NCBI GenBank assembly: GCA_965660855.1
Contig: CBFIBM010000002.1
Location: forward strand, 64,973 to 128,972
Source: an uncultured bacterium
GTDB lineage: Bacteria; Fidelibacterota; Marinisomatia; Marinisomatales; UBA1611
Direction of reading: 5' to 3'
DNA length: 64,000 nucleotides
In this document: piece by piece, positions 9,886 to 19,816 of the stretch
Layout: every line of letters starts with the position of its first letter
How positions within the stretch are numbered: position 1 is the stretch's first letter
Position numbers and translations under genes: made by a program
Notes under the pieces: generated by a model
What the model was told of the DNA's origin: nothing
The model's input: the letters and a program-made list of their open reading frames with translations, nothing else
Database searches by the model: none

Positions 9886-10362
9886 ATGTATTTGGCTATT
9901 CTCATCACTTTTATAGTTGCCATAGATCAATGGTCAAAGTGGTTAATAAGATCTAAGTTCTCTCTTTATCAATCTAAGCCAATAATTCAGGATTTTTTCC
10001 ATTTTACATATGTTACAAATGAAGGAATGGCGTTTGGACTTGAATTACCTGGTGGTAAATTAATTTTATTAATTTTAACTGTAATATTAACAATTTTTCT
10101 TGCTTTTTACCTCTACAGTGAGAAAGATGGACATCCACTTTCAAAATATGGTTTAGCATTAATTTTAAGCGGTGCTATAGGTAATTTAATTGATAGAGCT
10201 TTTTTTGGAAAAGTGGTGGATTTTTTGGATTTTATGATTGGTGATTTTCATTGGTATGTATTCAATGTTGCGGATTCTTCAGTAACAATTGGAATGGTTC
10301 TTTATATTATTTATTCAATTATGGAAGAAAAATTAAACTCAATAAAACAAACCCCAATCTGA
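9886..10362 (+). CDS. lspA: Lipoprotein signal peptidase II
   Basis: DQWSK, NEGMAFG, GAIGNLIDR, VVDF, FNVAD motifs. Confidence 0.95.
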   Translation: MYLAILITFIVAIDQWSKWLIRSKFSLYQSKPIIQDFFHFTYVTNEGMAFGLELPGGKLILLILTVILTIFLAFYLYSEKDGHPLSKYGLALILSGAIGNLIDRAFFGKVVDFLDFMIGDFHWYVFNVADSSVTIGMVLYIIYSIMEEKLNSIKQTPI

Positions 10363-11330
10363 TTCTATTTACTATTCTCCATAAAGAAGATGTTGGTAAA
10401 AGACTAGATAGATATTTAGTTCAAAAAATAAAAAATGAATCAAGATCAAAAATTCAAAATTGGATACGATCAAAATTAGTTCTCGTAAATAAACTACACA
10501 AAAAAACAGGTTATTTATTAGAACTCGAAGATGAAATTCGGCTCAAAATACCAGATTCCCCTCCAATCAATAGTGAAAAACCAGAGCCGATAGAACTAAA
10601 TATTGTTTATGAAGATGATGAAATAGCCGTAATAGATAAACCTTCAGGTTTAGTTGTTCATTCTGGTATTTCTAATACATCTGGAACTCTTGTAAATGGT
10701 CTCCTTTTTCATTTTAAATCATTATCAGCAGGAAATCAATCTTTTAGACCTGGTATAATTCATAGATTAGACAAAGAAACATCAGGTGTTATCGTTATTG
10801 CAAAAACAGATTTTGCTCATTCAAAAATAAGCAAACAGTTTCAAAATAGAGAGGTTGAAAAGAAGTATATTGCTTTAACATGGGGACAATGGGAAAAAAA
10901 ACATGGTTTTATAGATTTTTCAATTGGACGTAATCGTAAAGAGCCAACATCTTTTATTATCGATGAAAAAGGAAAAGCATCTTTAACAAAATATTCTGTG
11001 GAAAAACAATTTCGACATTTAGCACTAGTATCCTTTTTTCCAAAAACAGGAAGGACGCATCAAATAAGAGTTCACTCTTCTTCTTTGGGGCATCCTATTT
11101 TTGGGGACGGTAAGTATGGTGGAGGCGTATCAAAAGCAAAAGGATATTTACCTGAGTTCACAAATTTTTATAAAAAGAATATTAAAGAATTAGATCGACA
11201 CGTTTTACATGCGAAAGAAATTAAATTTAAACACCCTAAAAATAATAAAATTATGAATTTTAAGGCGCAATTACCTAAAGAGATATTAAATTTGATTAAT
11301 TCATTAGAAACACTTTATGAAAAAAAATAA
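10359..11330 (+). CDS. rluD: RluA/RluD family pseudouridine synthase with S4 domain (start uncertain; ORF track begins at 10251 inside lspA)
   Basis: RLDRYL...SRSKIQ S4 domain, DKPSGLVVH, HRLDKETSG (catalytic Asp), TGRTHQIRVH, GDGKYG. Confidence 0.9.
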   Translation: MILFTILHKEDVGKRLDRYLVQKIKNESRSKIQNWIRSKLVLVNKLHKKTGYLLELEDEIRLKIPDSPPINSEKPEPIELNIVYEDDEIAVIDKPSGLVVHSGISNTSGTLVNGLLFHFKSLSAGNQSFRPGIIHRLDKETSGVIVIAKTDFAHSKISKQFQNREVEKKYIALTWGQWEKKHGFIDFSIGRNRKEPTSFIIDEKGKASLTKYSVEKQFRHLALVSFFPKTGRTHQIRVHSSSLGHPIFGDGKYGGGVSKAKGYLPEFTNFYKKNIKELDRHVLHAKEIKFKHPKNNKIMNFKAQLPKEILNLINSLETLYEKK

Positions 11331-12327
11331 CAATTCAACCTTTCATGAATTTCTAGTATTCATTAAAAAAGAGCGAGGATATAGTCTCAACACTATTGAT
11401 GCATACAAAACAGATATCAAAAAGTTCAATTGTTTCCTTTTACAATATTTTGATTCATCAAATATTGATTATAAAAAAGTAGACAAATGGGCTTTGAGGA
11501 ATTTTTTTGGAAAAGAAGAAGAAGAAGGTATCAGTAGTAAGTCACGTAGGCGGAGATTATCTAGTATAAGGACTTTCTTTAAGTTTTTAAATAGAGAGAA
11601 TAAAATTACTAAAAATCCAGCGTTAGATATTTCATTACCAGCAATTAATAAAAATATTCCCTTTATAATACCAAAAGAGAGTCCAAACCCAAATGATAAA
11701 ACAGGAAAAACAAAAATAGATAATATCCAAGCACTCGTTAATCAACCTAATATAGATTATCAAAAAAGTAAAATAGAAAAAAAGGAGAGAAAAGGTGCAT
11801 ACCTTAGAATGCTTAGAAATACTGCTATATTAGAACTGTTTTATGCAACAGGTATTCGTTTAAGTGAGCTAGTGAACTTAAATATCAACTCGTTTAATGT
11901 AAATGAAATGTTACTTAAGGTGAGAGGAAAGGGAGATAAAGAAAGATTAATTCCATTTGGTAGAAAAGCAATGAACTCTATTTCTCATTATTTAGATGAA
12001 AGATCTTTGAATTGGGATTCAAATGGTGAAAGGCCTATTTTTTGTGGTTGGGGTGAAAAAAGAATTTCTCAAAGGTTAGTTCAATTAATCTTAAAAGATT
12101 ATCTTTCCACAATTCTAAGGTCAATTGATATTAGAAATCCCAAAGGAACTAGTCCTCACACTATTAGACATACATTTGCAACACATTTATTAGAGGCTGA
12201 TGTAGATATTAGAATCATACAAGAACTTTTAGGGCATAGTAGTATAAGTTCAACACAAATATATACCAAAGTTGATACTAAAAAATTAATTGAAATTTAT
12301 AAAGAATCACACCCTCATGGTTCCTAA
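11317..12327 (+). CDS. xerC: XerC/XerD family tyrosine recombinase
   Basis: SLNTIDAYKTD N-domain; TGIRLSEL, GKGDKER, HTIRHTFATH, LGH, TQIY catalytic set R-K-H-R-H-Y. Confidence 0.85.
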   Translation: MKKNNNSTFHEFLVFIKKERGYSLNTIDAYKTDIKKFNCFLLQYFDSSNIDYKKVDKWALRNFFGKEEEEGISSKSRRRRLSSIRTFFKFLNRENKITKNPALDISLPAINKNIPFIIPKESPNPNDKTGKTKIDNIQALVNQPNIDYQKSKIEKKERKGAYLRMLRNTAILELFYATGIRLSELVNLNINSFNVNEMLLKVRGKGDKERLIPFGRKAMNSISHYLDERSLNWDSNGERPIFCGWGEKRISQRLVQLILKDYLSTILRSIDIRNPKGTSPHTIRHTFATHLLEADVDIRIIQELLGHSSISSTQIYTKVDTKKLIEIYKESHPHGS

Positions 12328-12342: not shown

Positions 12343-13965
12343 ATGATAAATAATGAAAATATAAATTTAAAAGTCTTAGGATTAAAAAATCAAAAAAAGA
12401 TATGCAGAAATTTACCAGTTGAATTATTAATTGATGATATCATTAATAATAATGAAGGTATTGTAGGACCAAAAGGATCAGTGTTGGTAGATACGGGGAT
12501 ATATACTGGGAGATCTCCTAAGGATAAATATTTTGTTGAAGAATCATCTTCAAAAGATAAAATATGGTGGGGAGAGGTTAATAAAAAAATATCAAACGAT
12601 ACTTTTGATATCCTTTATAAAAAAGTAGTACAACATTATAATGAAGAGGGCTCATCGAATACGTATATATTTGATGGATTTGCCGGTGCTGATAAAGAAC
12701 ATACTTTGAATGTTAGGTTTATTGCAAAAAAAGCGTGGCAATCACATTTTGTGCATAACATGTTTATTAGGCCAAACAACAATGATTTAGATGATTTTCA
12801 GCCTGGATTTACTATCATTAATGCATCAGAGGTATACAATGAAGATTTTAAAAAATTAGGTATGCACTCTGAAACTTTTATAGTATTTCATTTAGAAAAG
12901 AGAATCGCTATAATTGGAGGAACTGAATATGGAGGAGAAATGAAGAAAGGTATTTTTTCAGTTTTACATTATCTCCTTCCACAGAAGAATATCCTCTCAA
13001 TGCATTGTTCAGCAAATGTTGATCATAACTATGAGAATACTGCAATATTTTTTGGACTTTCTGGAACAGGAAAAACTACTCTAAGTACTGATCCTAATCG
13101 TCCTTTAATAGGTGATGATGAGCATGGATGGTCAGATAATGGAGTTTTTAATTTTGAAGGTGGTTGCTATGCTAAACTTATTAACTTAGATCCAAATGAA
13201 GAGCCTGATATTTTTGGGGCAATAAGGCAAGGAGCATTGGTAGAAAATGTAGTTTATAATGAAAAAAAACAAGAAATTGATTTTTCAGATGGGTCAAAAA
13301 CACAGAATACAAGAGTTTCATACCCAATTAGTCATATCGAAAATTCTGTTTCAAATAAAGGGAAAGAGAGTATTGCAGGCCATCCGGAAAAAATAATTTT
13401 TCTCACTTGTGATGCCTATGGAGTTTTACCACCAACAGCAAAACTAAATCCAAACCAAGCAATGTATCATTTCATCAGCGGTTATACTGCAAAAATTGCA
13501 GGAACTGAATTGGGCGTCAATAAACCTTTGGCAACATTTTCTCCTTGTTTTGGAGGACCTTTTCTAACCCTTCATCCCTTAAAATATGCGGAGTTATTAA
13601 AAAATAAAATTGAACAATTTAATACTAAGATTTATATGGTAAATACTGGTTGGGTTGGAAGTGATGCAAGCTCTGGTTCAAAACGTTTTAGTCTACCAAA
13701 AACTCGTTTAATTATAAATTCCATTTTAAGTGGTGATATTGAATCTTCAGATTTTACTATAGATCATTATTTTGGCTTTAAAATACCAAAAAAGATAGAT
13801 GGGATAGAAAGTAGTTTATTAAACCCTATAGCTGCTTGGAGAGATTTTAAAAGCTATAAAACTGCGGCAGAAAAATTAGTGCTAAAGTTTCAAGAAAATT
13901 ACGAAAAATATGATTTAGGTGATAAAATGGTAGCTTTGGGAGGTCCTAGAATTCCAAAAGAATAA
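12343..13965 (+). CDS. pckA: Phosphoenolpyruvate carboxykinase (ATP)
   Basis: TGRSPKDK, YGGEMKK, GLSGTGKTTLS, IGDDEHGW, NFEGGCYAK. Confidence 0.97.
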   Translation: MINNENINLKVLGLKNQKKICRNLPVELLIDDIINNNEGIVGPKGSVLVDTGIYTGRSPKDKYFVEESSSKDKIWWGEVNKKISNDTFDILYKKVVQHYNEEGSSNTYIFDGFAGADKEHTLNVRFIAKKAWQSHFVHNMFIRPNNNDLDDFQPGFTIINASEVYNEDFKKLGMHSETFIVFHLEKRIAIIGGTEYGGEMKKGIFSVLHYLLPQKNILSMHCSANVDHNYENTAIFFGLSGTGKTTLSTDPNRPLIGDDEHGWSDNGVFNFEGGCYAKLINLDPNEEPDIFGAIRQGALVENVVYNEKKQEIDFSDGSKTQNTRVSYPISHIENSVSNKGKESIAGHPEKIIFLTCDAYGVLPPTAKLNPNQAMYHFISGYTAKIAGTELGVNKPLATFSPCFGGPFLTLHPLKYAELLKNKIEQFNTKIYMVNTGWVGSDASSGSKRFSLPKTRLIINSILSGDIESSDFTIDHYFGFKIPKKIDGIESSLLNPIAAWRDFKSYKTAAEKLVLKFQENYEKYDLGDKMVALGGPRIPKE

Positions 13966-14010
13966 TAAAATTTATAATTTTTTTTTGTTTTTTATTTTCT
14001 TAATTTATGT

Positions 14011-14058
14011 AGTCGGTTTTGAACCATATTGCTCGACTTTAAAATAGCTAAAAAGGTT
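14011..14058 (+). ncRNA. SAM-II (SAM_alpha) riboswitch aptamer
   Basis: P1 AGUCG(14011-15)/CGACU(14034-38); UUUG; pseudoknot AACC(14022-25)/GGUU(14055-58) and UAUU(14027-30)/AAUA(14043-46); conserved UUGC and GCUAAA; directly upstream of metH. Confidence 0.85.
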
Positions 14059-14065
14059 TTATAAT

Positions 14066-14092
14066 AAGCCGGTTTAGTGCCGGTTTTTTTTT
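14066..14092 (+). terminator. Terminator hairpin forming the riboswitch expression platform
   Basis: GCCGG-TTTAGTG-CCGGT followed by a T-run ending immediately before the metH ATG. Confidence 0.7.
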
Positions 14093-17000
14093 ATGCAAAA
14101 ATTAGAACAATTATTAAAAGAAAATATTTTAGTTATGGATGGTGCGATGGGTACCATGATCCAAGAATATAAATTAGAAGAACTTGATTTTAGAGGTGAA
14201 CAGTTTCTTAATCATCATTCTGATTTAAAAGGTAACAATGATATTCTATCCATCACGCGCCCGGATATTATTGAAAAGATACATGATAGTTATCTTAAAT
14301 CAGGTGCAGATATAATTGAGACTAATTCTTTTAATTCAACTAGTATATCACAAGCAGACTATGGTTTAGAGAATATAGTTTATGAATTGAATAAATGTTC
14401 TGCAAAACTAGCAGTATCTGCATGTAAAAAATACAATGTCAAAAATAACAATAAGCCTCGTTTTGTTTGTGGTTCTATTGGACCAACAAATAAAACTGCA
14501 TCTATGAGTCCAGATGTGTCTAGTCCTGGTTTTAGAAATATTGATTTTGATGAGCTAAAAGACTCTTACTCTGAACAGATTAGAGGCTTAATTGATGGTG
14601 GTGTAGATTTACTACTCATAGAAACTGTATTTGACACACTTAATTGTAAAGCAGCAATTTTTGCAGTAGATACAGTTTTTGAAGAAAAGGAAGTTAACAT
14701 ACCATTAATGATTTCTGGTACAATAACTGATGCCAGTGGACGGCTCCTATCTGGTCAAACGGTTGAAGCTTTCTGGCATTCAATAAGACATGCTAATTTA
14801 ATTGCTGTGGGCCTCAACTGTGCATTAGGTGCAGAGCAAATGAGGCCTTATATTCATGAATTTTCTAAAATAGCAGATACAAATATATTAGTGTACCCTA
14901 ATGCAGGTTTACCTAATGAGTTTGGAGGCTATGATGAAAGTCCAAAAGATATGGCAGTCTATCTTGAAGAATTTGCATCATCAGGATTAGTTAACATAAT
15001 TGGCGGATGCTGTGGAACAAGCCCAGGGCATATTTTTGAATTTTCTAATTCAATAAAAAATTTAAAACCACGTCAAATTCCATCTTTTGAGCCTTTGACA
15101 AAGTTAAGTGGTTTAGAATCAGTTACAATTCGTTCTGAATCTAATTTCATTAATATTGGGGAAAGAACAAACGTAACAGGATCAATAAAATTCAAAAGAT
15201 TAATTAAAGAAGATAAATATGATGAAGCATTATCTGTGGCACTTGATCAAGTTAAAAATGGTGCACAAATAATAGATGTTAATATGGATGAAGGTCTTAT
15301 TGATGGTGAAAAAGCTATGGTTAAATTTTTACGATTAATTGCAGCTGAGCCTGATATCTCTAAAGTGCCGATCATGATAGACTCTTCTAAATGGTCAGTA
15401 ATTGAAGAGGGCTTGAAGAATATCCAAGGGAAGGGTATTGTTAATTCAATCTCATTAAAAGAAGGTGAAGAAGAATTTATAAGGCAAGCTAGACTTGTGA
15501 GGAAATATGGAGCTTCTGTTATTGTAATGGCTTTTGATGAAAAAGGACAAGCAGATAGTTACAAAAGGAAGATAGAAATTTGTAAACGAGCATATAATAT
15601 TTTAACAGGTATAGTTAAAATTGATCCAGAAGATATTATTTTTGATCCTAATATTTTTGCAATAGCGACTGGAATAGAGGAACATAATCAATACGGCAAA
15701 GCATTTATTGAAGCTTCAAGATTTATAAAAAAGAAAATGCCTTATTCACATGTAAGCGGTGGGGTTAGTAACCTTTCCTTTTCTTTTCGTGGTAATAATG
15801 GAGTAAGGGAGGCAATGCATTCATGCTTTCTTTATCATGCAACCCAAAATGGAATGGATATGGGTATTGTAAATCCAGGCCAACTTACATTATATGATGA
15901 CATAGATGAAAAATTGAAGGAAGCAATAGAGGATGTTTTATTTAATCGCAATCAAAATGCTACTGAAAATTTAGTTGTTATAGCTGAGAATTATAGAGGT
16001 GTGAAAAAGAATAAAATAGTAGAAAACAAATGGCGTTCTCTTCCAATTTTTGAACGCCTTGCGTACTCGTTAGTGGAGGGAATAGATCAGTTTATAATTG
16101 AAGATACTGAATTAGCTAGGAAAAATTTAAAAAAACCAATTGATGTAATTGAAGGTCCATTAATGGATGGTATGAATAAGGTAGGTGATTTATTTGGGTC
16201 TGGAAAGATGTTTTTACCACAGGTTGTAAAGTCAGCAAGAGTGATGAAAAAATCAGTTGGTTATCTAGTTCCTTTCATTGAAAAAGAGAAAAAGCATAAT
16301 AATATTAAGCAAGCAACCAATGGAACAATAGTGTTAGCAACTGTGAAAGGGGATGTTCATGATATTGGCAAAAATATTGTTGGAGTTGTTTTAGGTTGTA
16401 ATGGATATAATATTATTGATTTAGGTGTAATGGTAGCTACAGACAAAATTATCAATGCAGCAATCGAATCAAAAGCAGATATTTTAGGACTTTCTGGCCT
16501 AATCACACCTAGCCTTGAGGAGATGGTATATGTTGCATCGGAAATGAAAAGAAGAAATCTCAATATTCCATTATTGATTGGTGGAGCAACTACAAGTAAA
16601 AAACATACTGCTGTAAAGATTGATGAAAAATATCCCAGGAATGTATTTCATGTTTTAGATGCAAGTAGATGTGTAGGTGTTGTATCCAAGTTGCTGAAAC
16701 CAAAGGAAAAAAGAATTTTCATAAGTGAAATGAGAGATGAATATGAGACATTAAGAGATAACTTTTATGAAAGTCAGAAGTCTTTTAAGTTTTTAACTTT
16801 GAATGAAGCTAGGTTAAATAAACCAAGCTTAAGTTATAATCCATATCTACCTAAAAATTTTGGTATAAAGTGTTTTGAATCAATTCCTTTGAAAAAACTG
16901 GTAAATTATATTGATTGGGCACCATTCTTTCATGCTTGGGAACTGCATGGTAGTTTTCCCAAAATTCTCGATGATGAGAAGATAGGATCTGAAGCAAAAA

Positions 17001-17656
17001 AACTTTTCGATGATGGTAAGAAAATGTTAAATATGATTGTTGAAAAAAATCTATTAGTTGCAAAAGGTATTTATGGTCTTTTTTCTGCTAAATCAAACTT
17101 TGAAGAAGTAATAATTAAAGAAAAAAATATTAAATTTAAATTTCCACGACAACTTATAGATAAAGGGAAAAATCCTAATTTTTGTTTAGCAGATTATATC
17201 TCATCAGAAAATGAAGATTGTATTGGACTTTTCGCCGTAACTGCTGGACATGGTTTAAAGAAAATTGTTGATGTGTATGAAAAAGATTTAGATGATTATA
17301 ATGCTATAATGGCTAAAGTTCTTGCAGACAGGCTTGCTGAAGCTGCAGCTGAGTGGATGCATGAATATGTAAGAAAAATAGGTTGGGGTTATGATAAGAA
17401 TGAATCGGTAAATTTTGAAGAAATGTTAAAAGAAAAATATATTGGAATTAGACCTGCTCCTGGATATCCTGCATGCCCTTCTCATGAAGAAAAAGATAAA
17501 ATATGGAGTCTTTTAAATATAGAAAAAAGAATAGGGATTTCTTTAACTGAATCTCGTGCAATGCTGCCCACTGCATCAGTTTCGGGATGGTATTTTTCGC
17601 ATCCTGAGTCTCGATATTTTAGTGTTTTAAAAAATGAGTTGAAAAATGAGAATTAA
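14093..17656 (+). CDS. metH: Cobalamin-dependent methionine synthase
   Basis: [15 protein letters not shown] Zn ligands, pterin-binding [11 protein letters not shown]12 motif [16 protein letters not shown] activation domain. Confidence 0.97.
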
Positions 17657-18593
17657 AGATAAAATAAAAAAACCACAAAGGCCAGTGGTCGCCTACGAAA
17701 TTTTGCCGCCAAGGGAAAAGGATGGTACTCTTAACTCTTACGCTGAGACTATTAGTTCCCTTTTATCTCAAACCCATATAGATGCAATAAATATCCCGGA
17801 AGTACATGATGAGGCAGGAAGAGGAGATCGGCCTGTAGCAAATCATGAAAGAGGTGAACCTCGTAAATTTGGTTCACTTCTTCAAGATATTGTAGGAATT
17901 GAATCTATAGTCAATAGGGTTGTTGTTCATGAAAAATTTGAAGTTCAAAAAAACTGGATCAAAGAAACAAATAAAAAATATGAAATTGAAAACTTAATAA
18001 TAGTAGGTGGTGAATCCAGTTCAATTTCTTATCCAGGACCATCAGTTAATCAAGCATTGAAATATATTAAAGAGTCTTATAACCAACTTAGTGGAAATAT
18101 CCTTTCCGGTTGTATCGCAATTCCTAGCAGGAAAAATGAATCTCAAAACTTATTAAAAAAAAGCCATAATGGTGCAGAATTTTTCACGACTCAGGTACTT
18201 TATGATTCAAATAATATAATAAAAATGATTAATAATTATCAAAATTTATGTAATGTAGATAAAACCTTTCCAAGAAGAATATTATTAAGCTTTGCTCCTG
18301 TATCATCTCAAAAAAACATTAATTTTTTAAAATGGCTTGGAGTTGAAATTCCTATCGAAACAGAAAGGTATCTACAAGCTAGACCTGGTTCGATGTCAGA
18401 AAGATCTTTAGATGTTGCAATCGAGGTTCTGAACGAGGTACTTGATTATATCATAGAAAAAAAGTTAAAAGTTCCCATTGGCTTAAATATAGAGCATATC
18501 ATGTCTTATAATTTTCAATATTCAGTTGAAATGCTTCAAGAATTAGCAAGAATTTATCGTGAATTTTGTATTAAGACTAAACAATATAATTAA
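17646..18593 (+). CDS. Methylenetetrahydrofolate reductase, atypical (mycobacterial-type-like)
   Basis: [25 protein letters not shown]-barrel motifs; overlaps metH end; lies between metH and metK. Confidence 0.75.
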
Positions 18594-18640: not shown

Positions 18641-19816
18641 ATGAGTAAACTTTTATTTACATCTGAGTCCGTAACTGAAGGTCATCCTGATAAAGCATGC
18701 GATGCATTCTCAGATGCTATTTTGGATAGTATTCTTGAACAAGATACAGAAGCACATGTTGCATGTGAATCTCTAGCAACAAAAGGTCTTGTTGTTGTTT
18801 CAGGAGAGATTAGAACATCAGCAAATATTAATGTTGAAAGTATAATCAAAGATACAATTAGGTATATCGGCTACCACAAAGGAAATAGTGGTGTTGATCC
18901 AATTAAAGTTGAAATTTTAAATCATCTTCACGAGCAAAGTCATGAAATTGCACAAGGGGTTGATTCCGAAAGTATCTCTGATCAAGGTGCAGGAGACCAA
19001 GGTCTTATGTTTGGATATGCATGTAAAGAAACTCCAGAATTAATGCCTCTTCCTATTCAAATTTCTCATAGACTTACAGAAAAATTATCCGTTTTAAGAA
19101 AAGATGGTTCTTTACCATGGTTAAGGCCTGATGGTAAATCACAGGTTTCAGTTTTTTATGAAAATGGTATTCCTAAATCTATAGATAAAACTGTAATTGC
19201 AACCCAGCATGATGATATGCTAGATAAATATGGTTCAGAAGAAAAAGAATTGGAATTCGTGAAAAGTGAAATTGAAAACAAAGTAATTATACCAGTTTTA
19301 GAGTCATATGGATATGATTATAAAAATGAATTTATTGTTAATGGAACTGGTCGTTTTGTTTATGGTGGTCCAGAAGCTGATACTGGTTTAACTGGAAGAA
19401 AAATCATTGTTGATACTTATGGTGGCTATGCCCCTCACGGTGGGGGAGCATTTTCAGGTAAAGATTCATCTAAAGTAGATCGCAGTGCAACTTATATGGC
19501 AAGATATATTGCAAAGAATATTGTTGCATCTGAATTAGCTGAAAAATGTGAGGTCCAACTTTCATACGGTATAGGTGTAGCAGAACCTACATCTTTTTAC
19601 GTAAAAACATTCAATACCGGGAAAGTAGATGATGAATCTCTTACAAAAATTGCAAGAGAAATTTTTCCAATAAGACCTGGTGAAATAGTTAAACACCTAG
19701 ACCTAAAAAAACCACGTTATAGAAATACTGCGGCTTATGGCCATTTTGGAAGAGAACTAGAAGAGTTTACATGGGAAAAAATCGATATGGTTAATTCTCT
19801 ACAATCAAAAATATAG
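18641..19816 (+). CDS. metK: S-adenosylmethionine synthetase
   Basis: [28 protein letters not shown]. Confidence 0.98.

Follow-up and report, generated by a model that had tools for sequence, protein, structure and literature searches.

A probable SAM-II-class riboswitch with a terminator/antiterminator platform in the metH leader of a Marinimicrobia genome

Is the leader of the methionine synthase gene metH in an uncultured Marinimicrobia (SAR406, Fidelibacterota) bacterium an S-adenosylmethionine (SAM) riboswitch, and if so, at which level of gene expression would it act? The question is raised by positions 14011-14092 of a 64-kb stretch of contig CBFIBM010000002.1 (hereafter the window, meaning the whole 64,000 nucleotides analysed), where a preliminary description had placed a SAM-II aptamer and an intrinsic terminator with a candidate antiterminator directly before metH. 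Both the assignment to the SAM-II class and the presence of the terminator are supported here by sub-threshold Rfam matches, by relatives and by a terminator scan, and it is very likely that the leader is a diverged SAM-II-class riboswitch of the metH / MTHFR-like / metK operon that acts as an OFF switch for transcription. The sequence features, conservation, covariation and predicted energies that bear on this reading were established in the present analysis.

The aptamer and its orthologues

A scan of the whole window against 4227 Rfam families at gathering level gave no match. A permissive scan of 13900-14200 (301 bases) returned SAM_alpha (RF00521) at 14002-14072 with 22.2 bits (cut-off 36; E 0.0048 in the 301-base search), SAM-V (RF01826) at 14002-14061 with 25.3 bits (cut-off 41; E 0.04), and the SAM-II long-loop model with 13.3 bits (cut-off 44). 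The covariance-model comparison that had been proposed for this site thus gave full-length matches to SAM_alpha and SAM-V, both of them below their cut-offs. The relatives of the window's locus score higher. Among the closest MetH loci (L001-L035, 61-81% identical), of which 30 are titled Marinimicrobia, Neomarinimicrobiota or Fidelibacterota and five 'uncultured bacterium', the aptamer element precedes metH in 35 of 35, with a common leader that reads GUCGUGAUUUG..CC.UAUUGCCGCGAC...GYGCUAAAAAGG and continues into a G+C-rich hairpin, a U-tract and metH. SAM_alpha was matched in 18 of the 19 relatives scanned, in 10 of them with at least 36 bits, the best score being 44.3. A sequence profile that was built on the aptamer columns from 63 relatives, with the window's row excluded, gave 27.4 bits (E 5.5e-6) at the window site, its sole match in the whole 2,091,952-base assembly (84% complete); no second genomic copy was found with this profile, and the next match (C5:55045-55084, E 0.49 or 1.3), which is without P1, looks like a chance match. 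Since 10 of the scanned relatives pass the Rfam criterion and the profile match is unique, the window's element is best regarded as a diverged, A+U-rich orthologue of SAM-II elements, which default Rfam thresholds miss because the copy has diverged. Judged from sequence, its membership of SAM-II is founded on orthology and on structural and core features, not on its own score.

When the phylum was sampled evenly, RF00521 was matched at E <= 0.001 in 28 of 151 genomes and exceeded its cut-off in 12 of 151, the matches being concentrated in the window's own order; none was found in several large families of the sample (0/33, 0/26). Three RF00521 matches each were recorded in genomes G063 and G111, and in another genome of the phylum (G116, C132) two matches at 16907-16982 and 17016-17088 (32.2 and 35.6 bits) lie on the same strand 34 bases apart, which may be a tandem SAM-II arrangement.

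The window's element can be drawn as an H-type pseudoknot formed by P1 (14011-15/14034-38), the hairpin fold of which is calculated at -4.7 kcal/mol, and P2 (14022-32/14047-58). Its parts are the following.

14011..14015, + strand: P1 5' strand AGUCG, pairing with 14034-14038
14016..14021, + strand: L1, GUUUUG, predicted U-rich third strand of the P2 triple helix, aligned to AUUUG of SAM_alpha and SAM-V
14022..14032, + strand: P2 5' strand, made of AACC (P2a, 14022-14025) and AUAUUGC (P2b with the A-U-U-G core, 14026-14032)
14034..14038, + strand: P1 3' strand CGACU, read from the sequence; P1 is conserved and its outer pairs covary in 64 relatives
14039..14046, + strand: L3 linker UUAAAAUA, 8 nt, where the window has a 5-column gap in the alignment of relatives (A1)
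14047..14059, + strand: switching strand GCUAAAAAGGUUU, 13 bases, P2 3' strand or antiterminator 5' arm, as placed by Rfam alignments, column counts and folding

The motifs by which the element had first been recognised, together with the hairpin, the nine-U tract and the contact of the latter with the metH AUG, are all present at the coordinates given here. Within the switching strand, GCUAAA occupies 14047-14052, and GGUU (14055-14058) pairs with AACC (14022-14025). One of the pairings first proposed, UAUU with AAUA, is probably in the wrong register, as in the Rfam alignments UUGC is matched to GC-U-AA, with U14049 as a bulge. By analogy with SAM-V, U14049 is the predicted partner of the SAM adenine. 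In the SAM-V structure the ligand is contacted by the bulged U47 and by A48-A50; the bulged U pairs with the SAM adenine, a U:A.U triple surrounds the sulfonium and an A holds the amino-acid end, and the SAM-II core superimposes on this core in a near-identical way (Huang and Lilley 2018, PMC6061858). The role given above to the U-run of L1 is likewise taken from SAM-V (U8-U10; Huang and Lilley 2018, PMC6061858). Bases matching the SAM-V ligand contacts are all present in the window (U14017-20, A14028-G14031, U14049 and A14050-52), and the ligand-contact core positions are invariant in A1. The L3 linker of the window is shorter than that of the relatives, and no P3 hairpin was found in its 8 nt in A1.

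Alignment A1 comprises 64 non-redundant elements, 62 of which have a metH-like open reading frame (ORF) downstream. In this set 92.7% of the P1 and P2 cells are paired, compared with 32-54% in slid controls. Five pairs changed on both sides, and the covariation score of P1/P2 was 0.109 against 0.054 for shuffled alignments, with none of 500 shuffles as high; the covariation in relatives that the preliminary description had put forward as a check was thus found in P1/P2, as it was in an antiterminator pair considered below. All P2 pairs are either invariant or covarying, and the signal comes from the outer pairs of P1 and P2, as exemplified by the outermost P2 pair (G-C 18, A-U 16, G-U 6, U-A 2, unpaired 21), most P2 pairs being invariant and as such uninformative either way. 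The structure used in this pair test was taken from the family consensus, and the sequences are related.

Several features of the window's copy weigh against this assignment. It is below the gathering score in all three Rfam models, it scores weakest of the copies examined, and an RF00521 match in the window's own genome (G000) was not found under stricter filters. P1 falls one pair short of the family consensus, a U stands where at least 90% of the relatives have an A in GAUUUG (a U shared with L002 and L029), and the G/Y-rich bases before GCUAAA are missing. The failure to reach the cut-off of any SAM-II/V model and the U that replaces A at a nearly invariant L1 position would also be compatible with an aptamer for a different ligand, such as S-adenosylhomocysteine (SAH) or some other compound related to SAM, a change that is found at times in variant riboswitch classes. 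However, every position at which SAM is contacted in the SAM-V structure is retained, the controlled genes make methionine and SAM, and the SAM_alpha cut-off is passed by close relatives in which the gene context is the same, so that a change of ligand is considered highly improbable.

An alternative partner for the 3' strand of the aptamer

The switch is proposed to depend on two alternative pairings of GCUAAAAAGGUUU, either with the loop of P1, which would complete P2 and the SAM pocket, or with the 5' arm and loop of the terminator. The corresponding downstream features are the following.

14066..14092, + strand: predicted intrinsic terminator, stem 14066-14073/14079-14086 (8 pairs, 4 G-C), loop UUAGU (5 nt), nine U at 14084-14092
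14066..14078, + strand: predicted antiterminator 3' arm AAGCCGGUUUAGU, being the terminator's 5' arm and loop; 14066-70 with 14055-59, 14073-78 with 14047-52

When SAM is bound, the strand GCUAAAAAGGUU would be locked in the P2 triple helix, the hairpin at 14066-14086 would form and the polymerase would stop in the nine-U tract before the metH AUG. When SAM is absent, the freed strand would pair with the terminator's 5' arm and loop once these have been transcribed and before the 3' arm is made, and the resulting antiterminator (GGUUU/AAGCC and GCUAAA/UUUAGU) would allow read-through into metH, the MTHFR-like gene and metK. As the predicted stabilities of antiterminator and terminator are nearly equal, the polymerase would be expected to read into metH. 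SAM binding, termination in the nine-U tract, the direction of the switch and its kinetic order are those that would be expected from knowledge of the class.

In the hairpin, GCCGG (14068-14072) pairs with CCGG(U) (14080-14084), UUUAGU (14073-14078) lies in the loop region, and the fold of 14066-86 is calculated at -10.2 kcal/mol. A consensus scan of 13600-14400 found one terminator-like site against 0.2 expected from shuffles, and no other such site between the stop codon of the upstream gene pckA (13965) and metH. Among the relatives, per-sequence detection placed a terminator after the aptamer in 64 of 65 non-redundant elements; the column count of the terminator stem on A1, in which a slide of -1 scored as high as the structure, is uninformative because stems that differ in length are not brought into register there. 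As the only terminator-like site behind pckA, the hairpin might be thought to serve that gene as a constitutive terminator, with the aptamer, the weakest-scoring copy of those examined, being a decayed relic. A constitutive terminator in contact with the AUG would, however, shut off metH together with the MTHFR-like gene and metK, and the window has retained both the bases of the SAM contacts and the complementarity to the terminator. Moreover, the unit of aptamer, terminator and metH is maintained in relatives although the gene upstream varies and is not always pckA, and a relic can hardly be believed.

The antiterminator hairpin of the window, calculated at -10.0 kcal/mol, combines an outer helix (GCUAAA/UUUAGU) and an inner helix (GGUUU/AAGCC) that are separated by a 2x2 internal loop and closed by a 6-nt loop. 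The outer helix alone is worth about -0.8 kcal/mol, and the inner helix (14055-59/14066-70) occupies the 5' arm of the terminator. For the segment 14044-14079 the hairpin is the fold of lowest energy, and for transcripts ending at 14078-14082 the minimum free energy (MFE) structure consists of P1 and the antiterminator (-15.0 to -15.2 kcal/mol). The preliminary description had proposed an antiterminator formed by GCUAAA and the hairpin loop; that pairing proved to be conserved and covarying, but it is only the outer helix of the structure, the inner GGUUU/AAGCC having been missed. The more general idea of a switch based on competition for the 3' strand of the aptamer is borne out by folding and by conservation in the family.

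This conservation was apparent in energies as well as in columns. For 64 relatives, with transcripts ending two bases into the 3' arm of the terminator and 100 loop shuffles each, the MFE structure pairs GCU of GCUAAA with the terminator loop in 52, the mean energies are -9.8 for the antiterminator, -10.45 for the terminator and -5.8 with the loop shuffled, and at most 5% of the loop shuffles fold as well in 37 of the 64. The duplex of switching strand and terminator has an energy of -9.9 compared with -5.3 when shuffled, with at most 5% of shuffles as good in 41 of 64. By column, 79.8% of the cells of the outer antiterminator helix are paired, against 26-41% in slid controls. Pair 46-97 of the alignment, just outside GCUAAA, occurs as U-A 22, C-G 11, U-G 10, A-U 3 and G-C 1 and is unpaired in 14 cases; it thus takes all four Watson-Crick types, and the covariation score was reached by 0 of 500 shuffles.

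A number of observations have to be set on the other side. The 14 unpaired cases at pair 46-97 are from 61 scorable cells, and the loop pairing is not part of the MFE structure in 12 of the 64 relatives. In the window alone, 8 of 100 loop shuffles fold as well (0.08), the duplex is as good in 12% of 200 shuffles, and the covarying pair 46-97 is unpaired (A opposite G). The outer antiterminator helix of the window has just 6 pairs, including a G-U, because its sequence has diverged from the family. On its own, the antiterminator of the window is indistinguishable from loop shuffles, and the support for it is family-wide, where the relatedness of the sequences inflates the shuffle statistics and covariation was counted by alignment columns. 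In addition, the MFE structure of the full leader is a third fold (-16.6 kcal/mol), in which UUGAACC of L1 and the P2a 5' strand pairs with GGUUUAG of the terminator region; this fold may be a side effect of the complementarity among three segments. It spans 14013-14025 with 14072-14083, the P1 5' strand being engaged as well on the one side and GCCGG of the terminator region on the other.

The metatranscriptome material consisted of assembled contigs from relatives that are 95-99% alike, from which RNA ends, strand and level are not readable. A contig of a related strain from an RNA library (run X16) spans 14027-14259 across the terminator, which fits read-through or DNA in the library. Compared with the window, this contig has TTC in place of AAT at 14063-65, in the loop of the antiterminator hairpin, and one extra T in the U-tract (14083). 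Metatranscriptome records of 31 bases piled on 13967-14008 correspond to low-complexity A+T sequence.

Transcription, translation and the metH start codon

A transcriptional mode of action would be in keeping with what has been published on the class. Terminators had already been noted in many SAM-II representatives by Corbino et al. 2005 (PMC1273637), SAM-II is described as mostly transcriptional by Barrick and Breaker 2007 and by Huang and Lilley 2018 (PMC6061858), and a terminated metZ SAM-II RNA of roughly 100 nt has been reported from S. meliloti by Scheuer et al. 2022 (PMC9373788). The preliminary description had taken SAM-II to be a class that often regulates translation, and had argued from there that a transcriptional SAM-II switch might be undocumented in this lineage; this premise was therefore wrong, and so was the novelty attached to it, transcriptional SAM-II being already known. 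The part concerning the lineage may stand: nothing on SAM-II in Marinimicrobia was found in print among the papers listed, in a search outside which Rfam hit lists and the supplementary alignments of papers lay. Corbino et al. 2005 (PMC1273637) mention a few SAM-II elements outside the alpha-proteobacteria, including the Bacteroides group, and the riboswitches reported in Caldithrix in the literature examined are those for thiamine pyrophosphate (TPP), cobalamin and molybdenum cofactor (Moco).

The position of the hairpin relative to the start codon raises the possibility of control at a second level. The metH ATG (14093) directly follows the U-tract, and, as first noted, there is no Shine-Dalgarno-like core before it, GGAG, GAGG and AGGA all being absent between hairpin and ATG. 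In the window as a whole such cores precede 9 of 46 crude ORF starts, compared with a background of 0.10. Among 62 relatives with a recognisable start, metH begins 5-9 nt past the terminator stem in 43, and in these the U-tract is the entire spacer (UUUUUUAUG, UUUUAUUAUG or UUUUGUUAUG), without a Shine-Dalgarno sequence; in the window the corresponding segment is 14084-14095. In the remaining 19 of 62 the spacing between stem and start is 16-51 nt and the same switch is kept.

The hairpin could accordingly be imagined to control mainly, or also, translation, with the terminator fold covering the ribosome landing site on transcripts that escape termination and the antiterminator fold leaving about 14 unpaired bases (GCCGGUUUUUUUUU) before the AUG. 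The short distance of the start from the G+C-rich stem (7 nt in the window), the lack of a Shine-Dalgarno-like core at metH together with the low use of such sequences in the lineage, and the near-isoenergetic folds (-10.0 versus -10.2 in the window; -9.8 versus -10.45 on average), which would permit switching after transcription, speak for such a mechanism. Against this, the switch persists in the 19 relatives with the longer spacer and hence does not depend on the AUG being near; a canonical U-tract, which translational control does not need, follows every hairpin; and SAM-II platforms of such shape are treated as terminators in the literature examined. Control of translation by the hairpin is thus seen as rather unlikely, and transcriptional termination is the preferred reading. 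A more specific version, in which the terminator hairpin would double as a translational gate and the leader would constitute a single-hairpin, dual-level SAM switch without a ribosome-binding sequence, is suggested by the sequence arrangement and is put forward tentatively, as a doubtful possibility; if it were true, the near-isoenergetic folds would set both read-through by the polymerase and access of the 30S subunit to an unpaired landing site.

The purely translational SAM-V mode was tried for the window and rejected because AAAAAGG, 37 nt before the AUG and with the terminator between them, is too far from the start codon.

The upstream region offers a candidate promoter element.

14001..14006, + strand: possible -10 box TAATTT, 5 nt before P1

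At 13973-13978 there is a TATAAT without mismatch, and a scan for sigma-70 promoters found none with two hexamers upstream of P1. On visual inspection of the 22 bases upstream of P1 in 65 elements, most relatives show a TAAnnT-like box at a distance of 7-10 nt from P1. The strict Bacteroidetes-type TAnnTTTG is found before P1 in 10 of 65 elements compared with 1.8% in shuffles, and is thus enriched, not general.

Known systems, other lineages and the surrounding genes

Among described classes, SAM-II (RF00521, the metA motif) shares with the window's element the H-type pseudoknot of P1 and P2, a core of the form GAUUUG...UUGC...GCUAAA, a P2a that comprises 4 pairs and contains no Shine-Dalgarno sequence, the position in the leader of a methionine/SAM gene and the intrinsic terminator between P2 and the ORF, and the window's orthologues in relatives pass the family cut-off. 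It differs in that the window's host belongs to Marinimicrobia, not to Proteobacteria or Bacteroidetes, in that the window's element is more A+U-rich, has a shorter P1 and L3 and reaches 22.2 of the 36 bits required, and in that its U-tract abuts the start codon; the gene it would control is metH, whereas the targets published in the literature examined are metA, metX, metY, metZ, metC and hom. SAM-V (RF01826; metY/bhmT of Candidatus Pelagibacter; PMC6061858) has the same binding-site architecture and also comes from a marine, A+U-rich genome, and the UUUGAACCAUAUUG...GCUAAAAAGG of the window obtains a slightly higher bit score against the SAM-V consensus (25.3) than against that of SAM_alpha. 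However, SAM-V is translational, with the Shine-Dalgarno sequence in a 2-pair P2a and a P3 hairpin (PMC6061858), whereas the window's element has 4 pairs in P2a, no P3 and an intervening terminator, and its 25.3 bits are below the cut-off of 41. An analogy can also be drawn with the Guanidine-IV (mepA) riboswitch, where a sequence outside the terminator pairs with its terminal loop and counters termination (PMC10907184). In Guanidine-IV this loop pairing is promoted by the ligand (ON switch) and forms a pseudoknot with an intact hairpin (PMC10907184), whereas in the window it would belong to the ligand-free state and would be half of an alternative hairpin, in which the 5' arm of the terminator is engaged as well. 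A spermidine-type variant (PMC10853860) was set aside as irrelevant, as it concerns SAM-I and not SAM-II.

Similar wiring is predicted well beyond the closest relatives. The metH leaders of Gemmatimonadales show the same complementarity; in locus L056, for example, CGCUAAAACG faces CGUUUUAGC. A pattern scan yielded 70 other SAM-II-like loci from other lineages, some of which are probably chance matches, 25 of them with a terminator; in 20 of these 25, at least 5 bases of the P2 3' strand are predicted to pair with the terminator's 5' half or loop. By these predictions the terminator/antiterminator design is not special to the window's lineage and is found in other phyla. Spirochaetes, Ignavibacteria, Elusimicrobia and other groups were likewise found by the scan to have SAM-II-like leaders, and in many of these the aptamer is directly followed by AGGAG and an ATG. 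In L083, L087, L098, L152, L153, L156, L158, L162, L168, L171, L180, L188 and others the aptamer ends in AAAAAGGAG with an ATG within ~10 nt, and these leaders appear to be translational, SAM-V-like platforms outside the lineages named in the literature examined.

Taken on this comparative footing, the window's element is a genuine and conserved riboswitch of the SAM-II class that has a terminator/antiterminator platform, an ordinary type of switch in a little-studied lineage, and it leaves the known riboswitch mechanisms unchanged. For a marine lineage that is abundant and uncultured it provides a regulatory annotation, namely a putative feedback by SAM that covers metH, the MTHFR-like gene and metK. 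Standard Rfam annotation misses the class in the most A+U-rich genomes, with 12 of 151 genomes over the cut-off against 28 in which SAM-II is detectable. The comparison also gives a covariation-backed wiring of SAM-II terminator platforms, P2 3' strand with terminator 5' arm and loop, which in the literature examined is assumed and not spelled out.

The genes that would be controlled are the following.

14093..17656, + strand: metH, cobalamin-dependent methionine synthase, 1187 aa, with five MetH Pfam domains and an N-terminus that aligns with the MetH starts of relatives
17646-18593, + strand: MTHFR-like gene, overlapping metH by 11 bases
18641-19816, + strand: metK, after a 47-base gap

Judged from the 11-base overlap and the 47-base gap, the three genes are probably co-transcribed as one operon. 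Upstream of pckA, at 10251-12327, an ORF for an RluA-type pseudouridine synthase (S4 domain and PseudoU_synth_2) and the start of an ORF for a XerC/XerD-like tyrosine recombinase overlap by 14 bases, both being ordinary housekeeping genes.

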